In this document: positions 11,436-22,826 of the stretch, piece after piece
How positions within the stretch are numbered: position 1 is the first letter of the stretch
How the letters are laid out: each line of letters opens with the position of its first letter
Origin: Protoeuglena noctilucae
Taxonomy: Eukaryota
Reading direction: 5' to 3'
NCBI GenBank assembly: GCA_958009085.1
Contig: OY253683.1
Span: forward strand, 248,001 to 312,000
Length of the DNA: 64,000 bases
Made by a program: the position numbers and the translations under genes
Notes under the pieces: model-generated
Seen by the model: the letters and a program-made list of their open reading frames with translations, nothing else
Database searches by the model: none
Told to the model about the DNA's origin: nothing

Positions 11436-12718
11436 TCATGAGAACACTGTGTGAGTAATTGTATTACCCTGCTGGGGTACTGGTGATACCGCAGCATCAC
11501 TGACGCATGCCATGCGCGGCTCGCACCCGATACTGAAGCGCCACGAGGGGTAGGTGCTCTTGGTTGACAAGAGCTGCTTCCCCAGCGAGTCCGACACGCG
11601 GAGCTCCGTGGGCTTCCTCGTCAACGCCTCCTCCCTCAACAGCGCGCTTAGAGAGTTCTCGTCCTCCCCGCGCGCCGACCGACTGCGAGTGACGCGAGAA
11701 AGGGAGCGTTGGTTGCGGCAAATGCGCTGGCTGGCCCTTTCCACCTCCGAACGCTCGGCTAGGCCTAGTCAGAATGTGGTTTTCAGCACACACGGCCTAT
11801 CAGTCATATGGTGATCACGGCGCTCACCCGAACGAGTAAGCGGGCCGGTTGATGGCGGCCCCTCGGTCTGCGGCGTAGTCTCCCGGTCCCGGCATGTCCC
11901 CCGCGCGCTTCTCCTCCGGGTTGGGCTTCCGCGGGTCCGTGGCCCGCAGCTCCCGGCCAAACGAGTAGCCCGGGAGGGTCGCCTTGGAGTCCACTTGCTT
12001 TCCAATGCCTGGGTAGGCCCGGTAGGACCCGGGGCCCCTGCCTTCCCTGCAGTAGAAGCCCTCCTCCATGCCCTTGTGGCACACGCGGTTCTCCCTCTGC
12101 AAGGGCCAGGGCGGTCGCATGTGAGGCGCCGCCGCCCATGTGAGCGCGTGCTGCGGGCGGCCCTGTGCGCCACGATGTGAGCTTCGCAGCCCTCCGAGCG
12201 GCACCTCAGAGAATCCGAACGGGGCGGTTCCCGCGTGGATCTTGGTGGAGAGGACGTGGCCGACGTCGCGCGTCCGGTACTGCCCCGGCCCTGGCAGGCG
12301 CCCGTCCGCGCTGTCGAAGCGGGTGCTGTGCGAGAAGGAGAACGGACCCAAGGTGCGCTTCTCCGACTGCGGCTGGGACCCCATCGCGCCGCCCTTGGGG
12401 TACTGCCCGGGCCCGGGCGTCCACACGGGGATCTGGCTCGCGCTGTGCTTCTTGGTGATGAACTGGGTGTTTTTCGGGTCGAATCGGGACGCGGAGCCGA
12501 AGCCGATGGCCGGGGAGGACCGCTGCGGAGGGCGGGGAGGGCGCGAGTGGCGCTGAGAATGGCGAACGAGCCGCGACCGTGCCGTGCATGGGCCTACGCG
12601 AGGCACTTGCCTTGATGGACTCGACTTGGGGACCCATCTGCGGTCTCCGACCCCCGACGGCCTTGAACGCGGGCTCGAAGGTCCGGTCGCGCCGGCGGGT
12701 GGGGCTCACGGGGTCCAT
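11436..12718 (-). CDS. STPG/SHIPPO (sperm-tail PG-rich repeat, ODF3-like) axonemal protein; may have further upstream exons
   Basis: Repeated PGPG[Q/D]Y motifs (TPGPGQY, LPGPGQY, GPGSY, MPGPGDY) alternate with P.[Y/F]SF motifs. Confidence 0.8.
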
Positions 12719-13316
12719 GGCATACTCCTGCAGATGCGCGAGGGCTGGGCGTCGCGGAGCGGGAAGACAGGGCCCTGACAGGAACCGCATGGATGCAGAA
12801 AGAGTCAAAGGACAGAAGGACCTCGTCGCGGCGTTTGGGGAAGGGCCGCGCGTCGGAAGCGGGGCTCACGGGTGCCGTGCGCCATGCCAGGGCCTTGTGG
12901 GGCGACACGCGGCCCTCCTCTCACCCTGCGCCCTGCGCTCACGCTTGGCAGCTCCGAACTATCCTCCGCTTCCCTAACCTCGCCCCCGGGATGAGCCATG
13001 GCGGCGCGCTGCCCCTGCACCCTCCGCGAGCCTGGCCAGAGTGGGCCTCGCTGGCCGCAAGACAAGCGGCGTTGCCGTCAAGGATTTGTTTCACTCGATG
13101 AGCAACAGCAGCGTGCCGGGCTCGTGGAATTCGCGCTTTGCTCGGCGGCCACGGGACCCTACATGTGAGGACACGGGGCCGCCGATGTGCACGCTTGCAG
13201 ACACAGACCAGCGTCTCCGCGCGCTGCAGGGAAGCTGAATTTGCCACGGTACGGCTCAGCCCGAGCCAGGCAGCCTTGAGTGCCCTTTCTGACACTTAGG
13301 GTTTGGAAAACACCTT

Positions 13317-13467
13317 CATCGGGAAAACCCGGCGATTTGACGTCACTCGGATCAGAAGGATCGCGGGAATCACTGGATTCATCCCAGTGATCCCCGGGAA
13401 TCGCCGGGATCATCCCCGTGATCCCGGCGATCCCCGCCACTGCCGCAGTGATCCCAGCGATCCCGGG
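13317..13467. repeat. Left TIR and subterminal GATCCC repeat array (about 9-bp periodicity)
   Basis: 13-bp perfect TIR extending imperfectly to about 37 bp, followed by gtgatcccc/gcgatcccc/gggatcatcccc units. Confidence 0.88.
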
Positions 13468-14008
13468 CCGCGGCCCTGACGCGCGTGCGCGCCCCCGCGT
13501 TTGCTCAGGGGGCTCGAGAGGAGGCGGAGAGACCGCACATTTGCTAGTTGGTGCTAATGACTGCCTCGGAGGCCCCTCTCGCGTCCTAAAGCTTGCTCCA
13601 GCATGCAGACGGGGGCCGTCGACGCATCCGGGGTCCGCTTCCCCTGCGCCGCCGCTGTTCAACGTGAGATGTCCATATCTATGCGATGAGCGGGAGCTCG
13701 CGGGCTCGCCGGGCCCCCGGGGGCGCCGGGGAGGTCCCCGTGCTCGACCAGGCCTACCGCCGCCGCGGCCGCGATCGGGCACGCAGCGCTTGGCCTATGG
13801 ATTGAGGTGACCTAAATCTCGCTAGCTGCGGCGCCTTTGCCGGCTACGCCGCACGGAGGTGGCTGCTGCATGGGAGGTGAGCCGTCCCCGCCGTCATGGC
13901 GCTGCGGATGGGGGCGCGGGGCTGGCTTCGGAGAATTATCTCGATACAGATGACATCGCCGGCGTCGGGGACCTGGCACCGCGAGCATCGGGGAGCTCCT
14001 GGGGTCAC

Positions 14009-17000
14009 CTACTCCTCGCCGCCGCTGGCGTGGTGCTCCCAGACCTGCTGCACGTGGCCGCAGTGAAGAAGCTTCCCAGCAACTTTCACGGCGTGAAGCT
14101 GCCGCCGAAGGTTGCGGAGGGGCACGCACTTCAGAGCCTCGCCCTCCGCAGGCTCCAGGAGCGACAGCTGGGGAGGCTGCAGCGCTCCCAGGTTGGTGTA
14201 GAACGACAAGCACTGGTTGGACAGGTACCTCAGGTCGCATGGGGCCCTGTGCACCGGGGCCACCAGGGCGCAGAGGAAGGTCCCGGCACCGGAGCTGGTC
14301 TTCGCCTCAACCCCGCACACGACCCTGCCCGTCTGCAGCGTGCCCCTGTCCGGGAGGTACTCGACGAAGGACAGGGTCTCGTCGGTGGCGACGATCCTGG
14401 CCCGGTCCCCGCTGGCCGTCCTGATCTCGACCGTGGAGGTCAGCGCGACCTCGCCCAAGACGTGGCAGGGAAGCCCCGCGCCCTTGAGGGCGTTCAGGAG
14501 GTCCGCCTTAGAAACGAAGTCTTCCGCGCGTCCCTCGCTGCACAGGTCGTTCTTCTTCAGGACGGTCTTCACGCCCTTCACTTGGTCCTCGGGCTGGGAC
14601 GGGACCGGCTGCTCCGCCCTCGCCCGGCTCTTGATGACGGAGGCCGCCCTCTGAGAGATGACGCTGGTGCTCGCCTGCGACAGGGCTCGGGGGTCAGTCC
14701 AGCGCGGCTCAGCATGGCACGCGGGTCGAGCGCCGTGCGACCGCATCGAGACGTGTGAGTCGCAAGAAACGCGTCCTGCGTGGGCTTCCCCGCGTCGCCT
14801 ACGCTGGGCGGCGCTTCTTGCCTGTACCTGCACGTCGCCCTTGCCGTTCGTGCGCGCGTTGGCAATGGGCTTGTGCATGCGCTCGGCGTCGTTCATGCTG
14901 CCCAACATGATGGAGCCGTTCCTCGCCACCACTGCAGGGAAATGCGAAAGCGCGTGGCACTTCTGGCTGTTCTCGATCTTGCTGAAGAGGGGCTTCTCCG
15001 TGCGGACGATTTCGTGGCCACGCAGCAGCGTCTTGAGCACGACCTGCGGCGACACGGCAGCGACAAGGCTTCCAGAGTGAGTAAGGGGCAGCGAACGATG
15101 GGGCTGGTGTTGGAGAAGGCCTCACGTGGAGGACCTTATTCAGCTGCGCGTCCGCCGCCTGCGCCCCTGCGATGGTGGCGCTCTCCAGGGACCATTCGGC
15201 ATAGAGCTGAAGGCATGCCAGGGCTACGGCCACGAGCCCAACCCTCTCGTCGTGCACGTCTTTGCTGCCCGTAGGCTCTGCAAGGGATGTGGTGGTGGGG
15301 AAACACTCCCGGGGTTCCCCGGCCCGCATCGCGATACCCGCAGCTCCTCCCGATGCCCTCGCAGCGCTGACTGTCGGCCTCGCCTCGAGAGAAGAGCTCG
15401 ACGAGGGCGAAAGGCAGAGCTTGGATCAAGAACCTCGCCTCGTACGCCTTTATCTTCCCAAACGGGTCCACGAGGCTCAGCACGATCTGGAAGGTCTCGC
15501 CCCACGGACGGGCGTGGATCCATGCCGGGGCCTGCGCTCCACCCACACGACGATGGACATGCCAGGTGAATACCGAGCAGCTGCGGCGCCACTGCAGGCA
15601 ACGCACGCCATTGCCTGACCTGCAGCTCACCTTGGCATCCGCAATGATCGATGCGAACGCAGCCAAGAGGGCGTTTGCCTTTGTCGCAGACTCTCCCGCT
15701 GCCGCGTTGTTGTAGAGGACGGTCAGTATGCAGAAGGGAACAGTCTTGCCCAACATTCCCAGTTCCACGGTGTGCATGGGGTCAGGTGCTTGGCCCTGAT
15801 ACAAGTCCGACCCGAACTCGTCCCAGTACGACAGGGCAGGAACCACAGGATGAATTTTGCTCTCCCTGGCTTGTTCGTTGGCCCTGGCCGTCCCCACGTC
15901 CCTCCTCAAGCGCAGGATGTGCTGCACCTGGAGGCGATGCAGCGCGACGGTGCGAGGCGTGCGGCAGTCATCCTGGAGGCACAGCGGGCACGACCTGACG
16001 GCCAGCGTGGACGAGTTGGCCATCATGTCGTTCAGCTGCGCCGCCAAGACGGGAAAGACGATGACTCTCCCGACGTCGGGGAGGGTCATCCACACCCCAC
16101 CGGACCTCGCCACGCCAATCAGCTGCCGGTCCACGGCAGCCAGCCGCCGCTGGATGGCCTCTCTGTTGTTCAGGTCTGCCTGTGACCCCGGAGTGATCCC
16201 GGACACCTGCGGGGGCCTCGAGCGACAACTCATACACGCGGCGTGGTGGTGGACGTGTGGGCTGCAACGCCGGCAATCCTCCTCTCGCCTTCATGGACTC
16301 GACGGTGGCCACGGTTCGCGGCGTCCCTGTCCTCACGGCCTTGCAAGGCGACAGGAGGTGCATGTGGATGGGCGTCGTCGATGCGCCCTTGGTCATCTCC
16401 ACCCCGTCGATGCTGTACGCGACGGGCACGAGGAGCAGCCGGGCGTGCAGCTCGGGGCGGACTTTGCCAGCGACAGCCTCGGCTATGTCGCTATACCCCT
16501 TCGCCCGGGAGAAGGTGAGCTTCTCGTGGATGCTGGGATGCGTCTCATGTGGTCTCGCCCGCGCCTGGCGTGACCGTTCCCGTGCCTCGCTGAAGTCTCG
16601 CATCAACTTAACGAGCGTCTTGGGCTTGATCTGCTCCGCGTGCACCAGCATGTCCCTCAGCACCGTTATCGTTTGGTAGATGATGGTTGTGCTGCCCTCC
16701 TCTTGCAAAACCTGCAGGCCGTGCGTGCACTGGTTGGCGTCAGCCCCCTCGGCCGCGTCCGAGGCCCTCGACACAAGCGGCACCGCGGCGTGACGCACCT
16801 CGTACTGGCCATGGATGCTGTTGAGTGAGGTGTGGAACGTGCGGTGGGAGCGCCCGAGGTCGAGAAGGTCGTCGCGGATGTCGGGGCGCAGCTTCACGAA
16901 GCAATCGAAATGCGCTGCCGTCAGCGATGCCATGAACTGCGCCCCTGCTTCAAGTTGGCTCAGGTACTCATCGTCACTGTCCCTGCTCCTGGCCCGCCAT

Positions 17001-17512
17001 GCCTCCAGGTCCTCCGGCAGCTTCAGCGGTTCGTACTCCCCGGGCGCAGGAAGGTAGGAGACTCCAGGAGCGTCCTCTTGGGGCGCATCATGCGCTCCGG
17101 CGCTCTCGGGCGGTTCACCCCTCTCCGAGTCAATGTCCACGTCCATGTCCACGTCCGTGTCGGCGTAGTGGAGCCACGCGAGTCCTACATCTTCGCTCTC
17201 GCCATCACTGCCCGCAGCAACGTCCGCCGTCCCGTCTTCCTCCCGCAGTTCTTGGTCTGGTCCCGCGCTGGCGCTGTCGCGTGCCAGCCCGTCCGAGCCT
17301 CGCAGAGACGGAGAGACATAGTGTTCGTGTGGGGCGGCGGGGCGGGGTGCTTCCTGGCGGCTCTCCTCGCCATATCTCCAGCCCCACAGCGCAGGGCATC
17401 TTTGCTGATGCCGGGCGAGCTTGGCCGGGGTATCGAATTGCGTTCCACACGCGTCGCATTCGAGCATGGTGAGCTGCAGCGCAGGTTGCGATGCAGGGTT
17501 CAAGGCGGGCAT
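14009..17512 (-). CDS. DDE transposase (Plavaka/CACTA-like) with an N-terminal zinc-finger-like motif; about 6 introns, roughly 950-1000 aa
   Basis: CDACGTQFDTPAKLARHQQRC; D in YSIDG (16406-16408); D in LNDMMA followed by CPLC (16027-16029); PDPMHTVELG; KCHALSHF; E in DAERMHK (14882-14884). Predicted introns: 16712-16798, 16207-16288, 15532-15630, 15278-15383, 15044-15125 and about 14675-14821. Confidence 0.85.
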
Positions 17513-18728
17513 GGTGAGGGCGTGGAAGCGGAGGTGAGGAAAGTCCAGCGCGCGCTCTGTGGGTCAGGCAGGCTCAGGGGTCGTCAGTCCTCCAGGCAAG
17601 CGGGGGTGGATTGCAGGGCTGCAGCGACAGCACCGCGCACAGGCGAGGCTCGGCGCTGCTGGTGCGAACAGCGCTGGATCATCGTCCCTCTCTAGGGTGA
17701 GAGTGCAGCCTGCTGCTGAGCCATCTGCGAGGTGTGCTGACGTGGCTGGGGAGGGGAGGGGCCAGCTCCCGTGAGGTGAGATGCAGCATACGCATGACTA
17801 GATCAGGTCGGACATTGTCGCTGTCCCCGAGGTGCGCGGTTGGTCTGCTGCGCTACCGGTGGGGTCTGCGACACGGTCAGGTGTGCAAGGGGGGGTTGGT
17901 TGGCTGGGAGGGACGAAGGGCTGGTCCGCCAGCGTGGTATCTCTGTACTTGCTTACTGTACCTGGCACCGTGCCTGCACTCTCTCACCCCGAGACTGACT
18001 CTAACTTCGCCTAACAAGCACGCAGGCGCACGTGCCACCTCGTCCCAAGTTCCGGCGCTGGTCGGGTGCTGGCCGGGCCCGCCATGGCTCGTCCGCCGAC
18101 CCATGCCCCTTGTCTGTCGTCTGGCGTCCGCGGCGCCCCGCAGCGGTGGTCATCGACTCCTGGGGCGGCCGTCGGCACGGCGGAGTCGCGCACGCCACCA
18201 TCTCCCGAGTGCCTGGCCCGAGTGCCGGAGCGCCGCTCCCCGATGGAGCGGCAGCGTCCGGAACAAGCGGTCGGTGTCTCTGGCGGTGGTCGCTGCGCGC
18301 TCCCGTCGCGCCTGCGGCCGCCCGAGTCCGGCTGCATGTGCGTGCATGAGTGCGTTGCCTAGAGCGTCACGGATGGTCATGTAACCTCGGCGTAGGGATT
18401 GAAATACCAATAGCTACGCTAGGGAGCGATTACGGGCCGAACGGAGCCCCCCGGGCCGCGCGGGCCCCGGAGCGCGCGTGCCCAAAAGATGCGTCCGATC
18501 GCGATCAAGATAGGTCCGATCGCGGCCGAGAAGGAAGATAGGCGGCGGGATAGCCTCGGCTAACGCTTCCGGCGCCGCTGCGCTCCCGAGTGGGCCCCGC
18601 TCCCCGCGATCCCCGACCACGACGAAATGCCGCGAAACTGCTCCCAGCGGCCTCTCGCATCCCGGGTGCGCCGTGGCCGTAACCGCGCCGCGTAAAACGG
18701 CCTCCCCAGGGAGATCGGGCGCGCGGCT

Positions 18729-18889
18729 GGAATCACTGGGCTCAATGAGGGTTTACATTACAGTCTGTGTCGTCAGTGGGATCACTGGGATGATCCCTCT
18801 GATACCCCCGGATCAGCGGGATGATCCCCACGATTCCTGGGTATCACGGGGATGATCCTACTGACGCCAGACTCGCGGTTTTCCCGATG
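18729..18889. repeat. Right subterminal GGGATC/GATCCC repeat array and right TIR
   Basis: Units ggaatcactggg, gggatcactgggatgatccc, ggggatgatcccc and ggggatgatcc mirror the left-end array. Confidence 0.88.
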
Positions 18890-19201
18890 TTAGCAGCACT
18901 TCTTGAGCCCTTCCTTTCCAACACATGCGCATGGGTGCTTTTTGTCTTGGGCACTTTGCTGTTTCAGGGCGTGGTTTGACAACTTCTGCACGGCGCGGGA
19001 GGCAGACCACACACAGATTCTGCGTGGTTCTCGAGGGAGAACATCCAGCAGCGGAGGAGGTTGTTGCTTGAGTTGTGACAAACTACATAGTGTCCCCATC
19101 GCGGCCATCAGAGCATCATCGGCACTCGCGGGACGCGCTCTTGTGTGGGCACCCTTCCGTCGGCGCGTGCGCTCCCATCGTCATCGCTTTCCATCGAAAC
19201 C

Positions 19202-21013
19202 ATGGCGAGCCCCAACGAGGTAGTGCTCTACAAGATGCGGGAAGGCAAGATGGCTCTGTTCGCGTTCCCCTTTGAGCGGTGCCGCCCAGCGCGCGTGAAG
19301 CCTGCCTCGTTCACCCCGCCCGGACCTTTCCAGGAGCTTTCAACACCCGCTTTCGCGCTCTCGCTCAGGGTGGAGCATGCCATGCATAGGTCCGGGGTCC
19401 CTCGCCGTCGAGGCGTACCTGCGCTTCACGGGCAAGCCCTTTTCGGTGGAGGTGTGCCCGTCGCACCGATCCTCGCCCACGGGCCATCTCCCCTGCCTCG
19501 AGGTGACTGGCGTATGTGGCGATACATGAAATCTCGCCAGCCCGGTGCCGGGAACGCCGCGGATCGGCCCCACATGACCCTAAGCGTGGCTGCAGTGGGG
19601 CGACACGCTGGTGGGGACCCCCGCGCCCGCCGTCATGTCGGACGAGGCGGCGCTGGAGGCCCAGCCCGACGACCAGTGGGGCCTCGGAGGCATCCTCGGC
19701 GCGGCCAGCTGCACGTGGAGCGAGTTTGACGCCGCGCTTGTCTGTATCCGCTTCCTGCGAAGGAAAGTCGTGGACCTGGACGCGCACTTAACGGCGCGCG
19801 ATCGGGGCGTGTGCGACGCGCTGCACGCTCTCGTCTCGGCCAAGCTCGTGCCCGCCGTCCTGCACGCGACCTGGGTGGACCGCACGGCTTTCGCCAAGCA
19901 CACGTCCAAGGAGTATTTCGCCGCGCTGCCCTTCCCGCTCAACTGGACGCAGCCGCGGGCCACCCGCGGGGCCATCTGCGCCATGCTGCGCACCCTGCCG
20001 GCGGTGAGGCGTCCGATGCGAGCCATGCGCGGTCTCCATCGCAGCCCCCAGTGCCTGCCCACGTGTGCTGCCTTATAGTCGCGTCGCAGGAGCAGCTCTA
20101 TTCGGAAGCCTGCGCGGCGCTGGAGGCACTGGAGCACACCTGCGCGGGGTCTGGGGGCTATTTGATGGGGCAGCGACCGACGTCCATCGACGCCTCGGTC
20201 CTCGCCATCGTTTGGTTCATGCGCAACTTCCCAGGCGAGCCATCGACCATGTCCGTGAACGCTTCATTTCTACGCTGGTTCTGACTCAATCCATTGTCTT
20301 TTGATCCTTTGACATGGGTCGAGACAGAGGACGCATGGGCAGCTCCCCACCCTGTCTGTGAGCACCCATTCTGTGAACATGTGTGACGCTAGCACCCGTC
20401 GACCTCGCAGGCTTGCCTCGGGACCTCGGGGAGGCCGTGCAGTCGTGCCCTTCGCTGAACGCCTACGTGGACCGACTGGCTGCCGAGCACTTCGCCACGG
20501 CCGCACGCCCGGCGGACCCCGACCGGTGAGGACGCGTGCTTTCGCATGCTCGCATCATCACCGCGTTTGTCAGCACTGCCTCTCGCGTTTACCTGGCGCG
20601 CTTGTGCTGTCAAACCCAGGCACTACCGGGGGGACACGCCTGTGCGTGGCAAGCCACCCATGACGCAATCCGAGGCGGCGCATCGGCGAGGCAACGTGAT
20701 GTGGCTGCTGGGGGCGTCCGCGGTCGTGGTGGGGTACTTCTTGCTGGGAGGGATGGTGACGCTCCCCATCGGGGCGTACGAGGTAAGTTGTGTAAAGAGT
20801 CTACTCACCCTTGGAGCATGCGCAGGTGCCTGTTTGGGTGCTACACCCGTGCTGCAGAATCCAGCATGGGGGCAGCACGTTCTGATAACGTGCTACGTGA
20901 TGCTCTGTGCGCTGCAGTCCGTGGTGGAGTCATTGGCGGAGGGCGGCGGGGACCTGGACGAGGACGGCATGGGCGCCGAGGATGACATCGACGACTTTGC
21001 CGGAGACGAATAG
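19202..21013 (+). CDS. MTX: Metaxin (mitochondrial outer-membrane SAM complex, GST-like fold)
   Basis: SLAVEAYLRF..SPTG, YFAALPFPLNW, YSEACAALEALE..YLMGQRPTSIDASV; C-terminal TM helix and acidic tail. Confidence 0.85.
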
Positions 21014-21187: not shown

Positions 21188-22311
21188 TCAGCTCTCCCCG
21201 CCCTCGTCTTCGTCGTCCGACTGACTTGGCGGCAACAGAGCCGGGTCCACGTAAGCGTCGTCCTGGCCCCCGGCCCTGGGGATGAACGCCTCGCTATCCA
21301 CCAGGCCCGTCTCTGAGTCTGGGTCCCCCGGGATCCTGCAAGCATCATTGGACATGCATTGTTACTGCTACAGTACAACTGTAACATTCCGTACCATGTA
21401 GCATATGCTACCACATAGCCCTCTGCTCAATAGCAGCCTGTGCAGCGCTGACAGTGCAGGGCGTCGCGGCCTGCAGGGGCGCCGTGTGCGCGCCCCATCC
21501 CAGAGCCGGCCTCGCCTGGGCACGCGTGATGCCTGCGCCAGGAACTGCGACTGCACGGCGAGGACCTGGTCCGAGGTGCGGCACGAGGCGTATCGGTCGA
21601 GGATGTCCGCGTTGATGGAAAAGAAGGAGTGGCCCCATTTGAAGCGGCTCAGCACCTCCACCGCCTCCTCCTGCCACCCGCAGACGAAGAGGGCCGCCGC
21701 CAGCGCCTCGGCGCACGACAGCTTGCAGGGGCGGCCCCAGTTGACTGCGGTGCGGCGGGCGGCGTGACCGATGACGAGGCGCGGGGGCTGGTGGGGCGCG
21801 ACGCAGCGTGGAGTGGGGCGTACCTGGGTTGGCGGCGAGCAGCCATGGAAGGAGTCGGGGCGCTTTGGATTTGCACTGCCCAAAAGGGACCTCGTCGAGG
21901 CGATTCCACGAACAGTCCACCACCGAGAGGCCCCGCGCGCGCATCAGCTCTCGGTCCTCCCAGGACACCGGGGCGCGGCCCACGGGAGTCAGGCAGACGC
22001 CCGGATGGCCAGCTCCCAACCGCAACTCCCTGCAAGAGATGAAAGTGAAGAATAGCGGTCGTCGCTTGCCGGCGCAAGCGCGGCACGGCGCGCGCAGTGC
22101 CCAGGCCGGCCGGCCCGCGAGCAGCCCCTCACTTGATGAGCCCCTGGCGCGCGAGGCGCGTGCCCGTGCACCGGTTGCGATCACACTGCCCCAGGTCCCA
22201 CATGGCCAGCTTGACGCGGGGGACGAACTCGCTCCCATCGGCCTCGGCGGCGGCCGCCGACCCCGGGCCTGGCTCAGCTTCCGCCCACACGCGAGCCTTG
22301 GGTCGTGGCAT
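21188..22311 (-). CDS. TSR3: 18S rRNA aminocarboxypropyltransferase
   Basis: [60 protein letters not shown]. Confidence 0.95.
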
Positions 22312-22826
22312 TCTCGCCCACGGCCCTCAGCAACGAACGCTCAATGTACTGCCCGCGACCAATGCTTCGGCAAGCACGCGAGGAGACACGGGTGCAAGAG
22401 GCGGAAGAGCAAGGGTGGTGCGTAAAGAAACCGAGGGGACGACGTTGGACGGCAACGCTCGACTCTGCTAGGCGCGTAGTGGAAGTGGCGGTCGAAATGG
22501 TAGGCCAACTAGCGCAATCCAGCGCGCAGCCGGAGCGCCAGACCCTGACGTGCTGACTGGCGGCAGCCCCCGGCGCCAGCTCGACAGCTGACCCTGCGCT
22601 GATCACCGACGTGTACTCGCCATCTTCCGGCCCGCGCCAGTCTTTCGGAACTGGCCTCTTTTTGTCCAAGCGCCCCCGTTTGCAGCGGCATGAGGACGCG
22701 TTTCCCGCAAGCTTCAGCATAGGAGTTTCGCGACTGTGTTCTGTTTTCAGTGCGGCCGCGGGCCCGTCCATTCCCACGTTCTTGGGGTGCTGCCTTCGGT
22801 CAAATTGCACGCCCCGTCCGGCCAGC

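Follow-up and report, generated by a model that had tools for sequence, protein, structure and literature searches.

The stretch of Protoeuglena noctilucae DNA analysed here (contig OY253683.1, positions 248,001 to 312,000; 64,000 nucleotides, hereafter the window) contains a transposon of 5,573 bp at positions 13317–18889. Most likely it is a single-gene, autonomous-type cut-and-paste element of the PlavakaB kind, a member of the CMCT clade, which multiplied in one past burst and now decays neutrally. The host assembly comprises 26.3 Mb in 27 contigs. It contains 21 light-harvesting matches, which mark the host as a photosynthetic eukaryote and bear out the algal origin proposed in a first-pass annotation of the window.

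The element is bounded by perfect terminal inverted repeats (TIRs) of 13 bp. The left TIR, CATCGGGAAAACC, occupies positions 13317–13329 (plus strand) and its reverse complement positions 18877–18889 (minus strand); the identity of the inverted ends stops at base 13. The dinucleotide TT is present on both flanks (13315–13316 and 18890–18891) and forms the two copies of the target-site duplication (TSD). Subterminal repeats with a GATC core are located at 13349–13464 on the left, where they are likely binding sites of the transposase, and at 18729–18858 on the right. Eight plus six GATC motifs are found in the two terminal 200-bp segments, compared to 0.5 per 200 bp internally. The GC content of the element (66.0%) equals that of the remaining window (66.1%) within 0.1%. 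The TIRs and the TT duplication had been recognized in the first-pass annotation, which also named subterminal repeats among the typical features of CMC and Plavaka elements.

A search of the host's own genome yields 22 full-length copies, which are 99.8% alike and all have intact TIRs. Two further young copies, one on C13 with an unreadable left end and one on C21 that is interrupted by 4,085 bp of inserted DNA, bring the number of young copies to 24. An older copy on C8 is 94–96% identical and internally deleted. The genome-wide search for the ends, recommended in the first-pass annotation, returned 48 exact TIR matches, all on these 25 copies; a reversed-pattern control gave none. No family of miniature inverted-repeat transposable elements with the ends of the element was found: among 59 matches to an 11-mer, 49 lie on known copies and 10 are unpaired, versus 7 in the control.

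A perfect 2-bp TSD flanks 17 of the 22 full-length copies, and duplications of 3, 4, 5, 8 or 9 bp flank none of them. When the right flanks were shuffled among the loci (100,000 rounds), the mean was 4.5 and the maximum 14; the value of 17 was never reached. The duplicated dinucleotides are AT (5), AC (4), TT (3), GT (3) and AA (2), and TA is not among the 17. The copy C21 is flanked by TT/TT and the old C8 copy by AT/AT. The symmetrised target of 18 sites reads S-A-T-S. Termini and TSD length, in which other copies might have differed, hold for the family and not for the window copy alone.

Near-identical repeats of 5.6 kb are hard to assemble and five of the 22 copies have no perfect TSD, as might be expected if copy number and near-identity resulted from assembly collapse or segmental duplication and not from transposition. 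However, the flanks of the copies are mutually unrelated, similarity stops exactly at the TIRs and 17 copies possess a TSD of their own. Furthermore, other sequencing runs show an approximately 20- to 40-fold depth of the element, the same junctions and the private variant of one copy. The probability of collapse or duplication is close to nil, and for the family as a whole this explanation is refuted.

The transposase gene is located on the minus strand, and a predicted model of seven exons yields a frame of 964 amino acids with a single terminal stop. Exon 1 (16799–17512) contains the start codon, which is uncertain, a C2H2-like zinc finger (zf-C2H2, E=0.088) and an acidic linker; a splice acceptor at 17557 makes a further upstream exon possible. 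The first catalytic aspartate, D340 (codon at 16408), is located in exon 2 (16289–16711) and is assigned by motif only. Exon 3 (15631–16206) contributes the second catalytic aspartate, D439 (codon at 16029), the motifs C452xxC455 and D521xxH524 and the match to the Pfam family Plavaka (PF18759). Exons 4 (15384–15531) and 5 (15126–15277) are followed by exon 6 (14828–15043) with H701xxxH705, the catalytic E725 (codon at 14884) and H728. The C-terminal domain and the stop are encoded by exon 7 (14009–14674).

The six predicted introns are 82–153 nt long, four of them GT-AG and two GC-AG. Three restore the frame, namely intron 2 (16207–16288, GC-AG, 82 nt), intron 4 (15278–15383, GC-AG, 106 nt) and intron 5 (15044–15125, GT-AG, 82 nt). 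The other three are in frame: intron 1 (16712–16798, GT-AG, 87 nt), intron 3 (15532–15630, GT-AG, 99 nt) and intron 6 (14675–14827, GT-AG, 153 nt), for which a GC donor 6 nt downstream also fits. The first-pass annotation had proposed about six short introns, including the three frame-restoring ones at exactly these positions, and the model agrees with it.

Segments of the element were scored with a codon model for which host DNA served as the training set. The model recognizes coding segments in all seven exons, with a host-like score for exon 7. Introns 3 and 6 score low; intron 1 scores like coding DNA and is the least certain of the six. In exon 7, the differences from the old C8 copy affect 4 of 312 nonsynonymous sites; among non-coding sites, 36 of 691 are affected (p=0.003 for the comparison), and synonymous against nonsynonymous sites alone give p=0.21. 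Apart from the transposase gene, the codon scan detected nothing coding in the element, and two side open reading frames (ORFs) compared with Pfam have no significant match; a second gene was not found.

Two observations weigh against the intron model. None of the six intron joints is present in four sequencing runs, two of them RNA, and two of the six introns have GC donors, whereas both host introns bracketed by Pfam matches have GT. A single GC-AG intron was observed in the host, within a gene that gave no Pfam match. In the two RNA runs the element is present as unspliced contigs, one of which starts at the left TIR, and its depth is far above that of the flanks. Because of both features these runs look like DNA carry-over. 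The first-pass annotation had suggested RNA-seq junctions as a check; the intron positions stand, whereas the splicing of all six introns is something we infer, as the runs contain no joint.

Exon 3 alone was compared with 24,736 Pfam families and gives a single match, Plavaka (PF18759, E=0.0072, profile positions 198–317 of 325). In the ESM Atlas, 23 of the 30 clusters nearest to the transposase core carry PF18759, with a score of 0.92, and seven are unnamed. Together, the motif set and the ends support the earlier description of a Plavaka-like DDE transposon of the CMC clade with a 2-bp TSD.

On the other side stand several results of the homology searches. The PF18759 match of exon 3 scores 16 bits at a curated cut-off of 26.3. 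No Plavaka match is obtained for the raw ORFs, in a genome-wide PF18759 search or for the 808-residue natural frame of copy L015. The Atlas recognition scores (2146 and 2272) are below the tool's level of 2300, for which reason the Plavaka neighbourhood is a lead only, and the number of shared features (149–154) is below the 170 typical for family members. The 30 clusters nearest to a C-terminal query have no Pfam family; DUF6830 is nearest at 0.88. No true homologue was found among 1.84 billion proteins, where the two matches are a variant of the element and a tandem-repeat protein, the latter judged to be spurious. Searches of viral contigs, metagenome contigs and PDB sequences found only the element itself or nothing. 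Regarding the RNase H fold, single-sequence AlphaFold models are poor (mean predicted local distance difference test scores of 37.4 and 39.5) and the PDB sequence search is without a match. The profile comparison that the first-pass annotation had recommended thus returned Plavaka as the only family matched by exon 3, yet below the cut-off.

The missing homologue and the sub-threshold Pfam score could also indicate a separate CMCT lineage outside Plavaka, with PlavakaB-like ends inherited from the CA..TG ends common to the whole clade (PMC12730594). The unnamed Atlas clusters, seven of 30 for the core and all 30 for the C-terminus, point in the same direction. Such an origin is rather improbable: the match of the ends extends far beyond CA, to 12 of 13 bases, and in both profile-type searches with the core, Plavaka is the sole transposase family with a name among the top results. 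The element is filed under PlavakaB because the ends decide, the Pfam match being sub-threshold.

One database protein, P0001, corresponds to transposase exon 3 continuing into a downstream frame. Apparently it originates from a copy that has lost a small internal piece, a deletion that was not seen in the present assembly.

The mean pairwise difference among the full-length copies is 0.225%. The closest pair differs at five sites, and no pair is identical. Relative to the majority sequence there are 122 private substitutions, 5.5 per copy with a variance of 4.8 (three hypervariable sites left out), which fits copies of one age. The copies are related in a star-like manner, without any sub-clade of private mutations. 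At a mutation rate of 4–10 × 10^-10 per site and generation, a divergence of 0.10% would correspond to about 1–2.5 million generations. Since the old C8 copy exists, the family was resident before the burst.

Coding changes comprise 16 synonymous, 38 missense and 2 nonsense substitutions; the pN/pS of 0.81 does not differ from the neutral expectation (p=0.44). The frame is broken by a stop or frameshift in five copies, and a catalytic aspartate is lost in three, two of them beyond those five. Frame and catalytic triad are kept in 15 of the 22 copies, including that of the window. Changes from C to T are located at CpG in 27 of 46 cases (p=0.0002), and C5-methylase genes are present in the host genome. 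CpG methylation is suggested by both, and the copies probably decay under it.

Three hypervariable and unlinked sites are found among the 22 copies, at 17954 (T14/A6/G1/C1), 18477 (C15/G6/T1) and 18859 (T15/G7; C in the old copy). Possible causes are repeated mutation of the same site, gene conversion among the copies and errors of assembly.

With intact frame and triad, the window copy may be competent for transposition; its single missense change is outside the catalytic core, and copy L003 has no coding change at all. Together with the TIRs, intact in every full-length copy, this leaves room for an element that is still mobile, with one of the 15 copies transposing and new insertions being rare, somatic or selected away. 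Related elements do segregate as polymorphisms in Auxenochlorella (PMC12633428). Continuing mobility is nevertheless unlikely. The copies include neither an identical pair nor a sub-clade of private mutations. Among the loose ends listed (9 of 13), the five terminal ones, from three other runs, all fit known flanks of the assembly (L002, L012, L014 and L020) and none is new, although these runs may share the source strain and thus may not be independent. Additionally, the two RNA runs contain no spliced contig. Neither an empty site nor an intron joint is present in the four contig sets, and contigs drop rare forms. One finished burst fits the evidence better than ongoing activity. Of the recent, potentially active element of the first-pass annotation, the youth of the family is retained, while its activity finds no support in the star phylogeny, the lack of identical pairs and the neutral decay.

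In run X11 the contig of the left flank (12300–13343) has a depth of 100 and that of the right flank (18862–19900) a depth of 216, contig depth being a weak measure. The same run has two loose ends inside the element, at 15403 and 18481. Perhaps these features reflect a hemizygous flank and further rearranged copies.

For the PlavakaB-kind element with one past burst, the following course of events is proposed. The host spliceosome would remove the six short introns from the transposase transcript. The DDE transposase would then bind the subterminal repeats and cut at the CATC ends. Insertion presumably takes place with a 2-nt stagger at targets resembling S-AT-S, and repair would create the 2-bp TSD. 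All young copies appear to descend from a single founder that multiplied in one short burst and not later, and would now decay neutrally, probably under CpG methylation. The location of the survivors before genes may stem from a preference for open promoters, from selection, or from both.

The position of the copies relative to host genes was assessed with the codon model, using the nearest coding segment on each flank. The 22 full-length copies comprise 14 head-to-head, 8 tandem and no tail-to-tail sites, and all adjoin at least one gene reading away. As a control, the window and 20 other stretches, each of 10 kb, supplied 398 overlapping positions with a distance of 100 bp or more to coding DNA; 36–38% of these are head-to-head and 16–24% tail-to-tail. 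The resulting p-values (0.008–0.015 for head-to-head and 0.002–0.023 for tail-to-tail) are rough, given the lack of independence among the control positions. With the window as the only training sequence, the codon model gives 12 head-to-head, 10 tandem and no tail-to-tail sites. Pfam matches, found on 13 of 32 flanks (16 loci, both strands treated alike), agree with the codon-model direction in all 13 cases. In 21 of 22 copies the gene next to the right end, which is the promoter side of the transposase gene, reads away from the element; at the tandem sites the ratio is 7 to 1 (p=0.07, n=8). The window copy itself has a SHIPPO-repeat gene and a metaxin-like gene as neighbours, and both read away from it. 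Further to the right, at 21408–22337 on the minus strand, lies an ordinary host gene for ribosome biogenesis (Pfam Ribo_biogen_C, E=7e-16).

The promoter-side location can reflect a preference for open promoters, selection against other sites, or both, and surviving copies cannot separate these causes. We tentatively propose that the Plavaka transposase aims upstream of genes, above all at promoters shared by head-to-head genes, that this enabled 24 copies of 5.6 kb to settle in the gene-dense 26-Mb genome in one burst and that recombination between two inverted copies then flipped approximately 170 kb, re-pairing two bidirectional promoters. This combined scenario is possible but on balance doubtful. 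At the level of titles and abstract openings, no published report of promoter targeting by Plavaka was found.

The suggested inversion concerns two of the five copies without a perfect TSD. L010 (C12:709173–714745; CT/TT) and L012 (C12:882166–887738; TT/CT) are inverted relative to each other and 173 kb apart, and their flanking dinucleotides are exactly swapped. The swap fits an inversion by recombination between both copies. Joining the swapped flanks restores a palindrome with 7-bp arms, which is reached by 3 of 484 joins (a post hoc comparison). Against an inversion, none of the 17 normal TSDs is CT, and a misassembly would look alike. Gene continuity cannot serve as a test because all four flanking genes read away. 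The chances of an inversion of approximately 170 kb between L010 and L012 are about even.

The other three copies are L002, L015 and L022. L002 (C6; 932–1500) interrupts an alanyl-tRNA-synthetase-like gene (DHHA1 domain) in its final codons and alters the C-terminus of the protein; its junction is also present in run X13. After three extra bases, L002 has a GT duplication of its own, and L015 can be read likewise. L022 is flanked by AC/GT and is covered neither by the inversion nor by the extra-base reading. The left and right dinucleotide sets of the five odd copies are equal (p about 0.01), which prompted the consideration of a three-way translocation between C6, C7 and C8. It was dropped in view of the separate GT duplication of L002, whose own flanks complete the C-terminus of the alanyl-tRNA-synthetase-like protein, and the similar reading of L015. 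The length of open frames across re-joined flanks is not discriminating in GC-rich DNA.

Two copies contain additional DNA. The 4,085-bp insert of C21 (L033:1063–5147, C21:625562–629646) is single in the genome and has a 3-base flanking duplication and an A-rich end; its seven ORFs have no Pfam match. In the old C8 copy the deletion is filled with 274 bp of foreign DNA (L034:3881–4154). T-loop motifs resembling those of tRNAs are visible by eye in the filler, and ARAGORN found no tRNA in it.

The family represents a clean case of a PlavakaB-type element outside fungi: it is compact, has a single gene, and its ends, its TSD, its target motif and its 22 near-identical copies are all defined within one genome. 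In the literature searched no biochemical study of this lineage was found, and the near-intact transposase is suited to an excision assay. The 22 copies of the same age form a natural mutation-accumulation set, as illustrated by the CpG bias and the three hypervariable sites. The single-age burst, the placement of copies before genes and the possible inversion go slightly beyond the routine; a promoter location of the copies and their role in an inversion are testable claims. Targeting, if true, bears on how algae with very compact genomes retain large transposons and could be of use for tagging.

Among known systems, plant CACTA/EnSpm elements share the short TIR, the subterminal repeats, the catalytic motif set and the working mode of the window element. 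They possess CACTA/CAC ends, a 3-bp TSD and a separate TnpA-like gene, whereas the window element has CAT ends, a TSD of 2 bp (3 bp in none of the 22 copies) and no TnpA-like gene that could be found. It is thus distinct from EnSpm/CACTA proper, and also from fungal EnSpm with CAC..GTG ends and a 3-bp TSD (PMC12730594). A literature search for EnSpm elements in algae with a 2-bp TSD retrieved no paper. The TA target duplication of ESTA elements occurs at none of the 17 sites, and the TGT..ACA termini of PlavakaA (PMC12730594) are not those of the window element.

Members of the CMCT clade have CA..TG ends, TSDs of 2–5 bp and C(2)C and H(3–4)H between the second D and E (PMC12730594). The window element agrees in ends and TSD, and its predicted spliced protein has C(2)C and H(3)H between D439 and E725; the complete motif set (D, D, CxxC, HxxxH, E) depends on the intron model. 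PlavakaB elements are characterized by CATCA..TGATG ends and TSDs of 2–3 bp (Kojima 2025, PMC12730594), and 30 of 35 PlavakaB-type entries among the first 43 of 71 supplement entries start with CATC. The ends of the window element, CATCG..CGATG, match four of these five bases, and a TSD of 2 bp flanks 17 of the 22 full-length copies, the C21 copy and the old C8 copy. In fungal PlavakaB-1_RuGr 12 of the 13 TIR bases are the same, and PlavakaB-1_AuCo starts with CATCGGG, identical to the first seven bases here. CATC..GATG with a 2-bp TSD is the published PlavakaB signature, and the non-CACTA termini highlighted in the first-pass annotation are not a novelty. CATCG ends may already be listed among published algal Plavaka elements.

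Differences from fungal PlavakaB are the fifth end base (G instead of the usual A), the length (5.6 kb versus about 6–24 kb for entries of autonomous size), the algal host and a transposase too divergent to reach the Pfam cut-off on one exon. Additionally, neither TET/JBP nor another second gene was found. Earlier reports of Plavaka cover chlorophytes, streptophyte algae and red algae (PMC12633428, PMC13519894, 10.1101/2025.02.11.637652). The elements of Bostrychia (10.1101/2025.02.11.637652) are 17–19 kb long, mostly degenerate and equipped with three accessory genes. The window element is single-gene and 99.8% uniform, and nothing corresponding to the accessory genes PAG1-3 of the red-algal giants appears in the codon scan or in the Pfam search with its two side ORFs. 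Spirogyra and other Archaeplastida (PMC13519894) likewise have Plavaka-type transposases in photosynthetic hosts. Auxenochlorella (PMC12633428), also a photosynthetic eukaryote, shares young families in a compact genome. In its working mode the window element resembles a PlavakaB element, which it very probably is.

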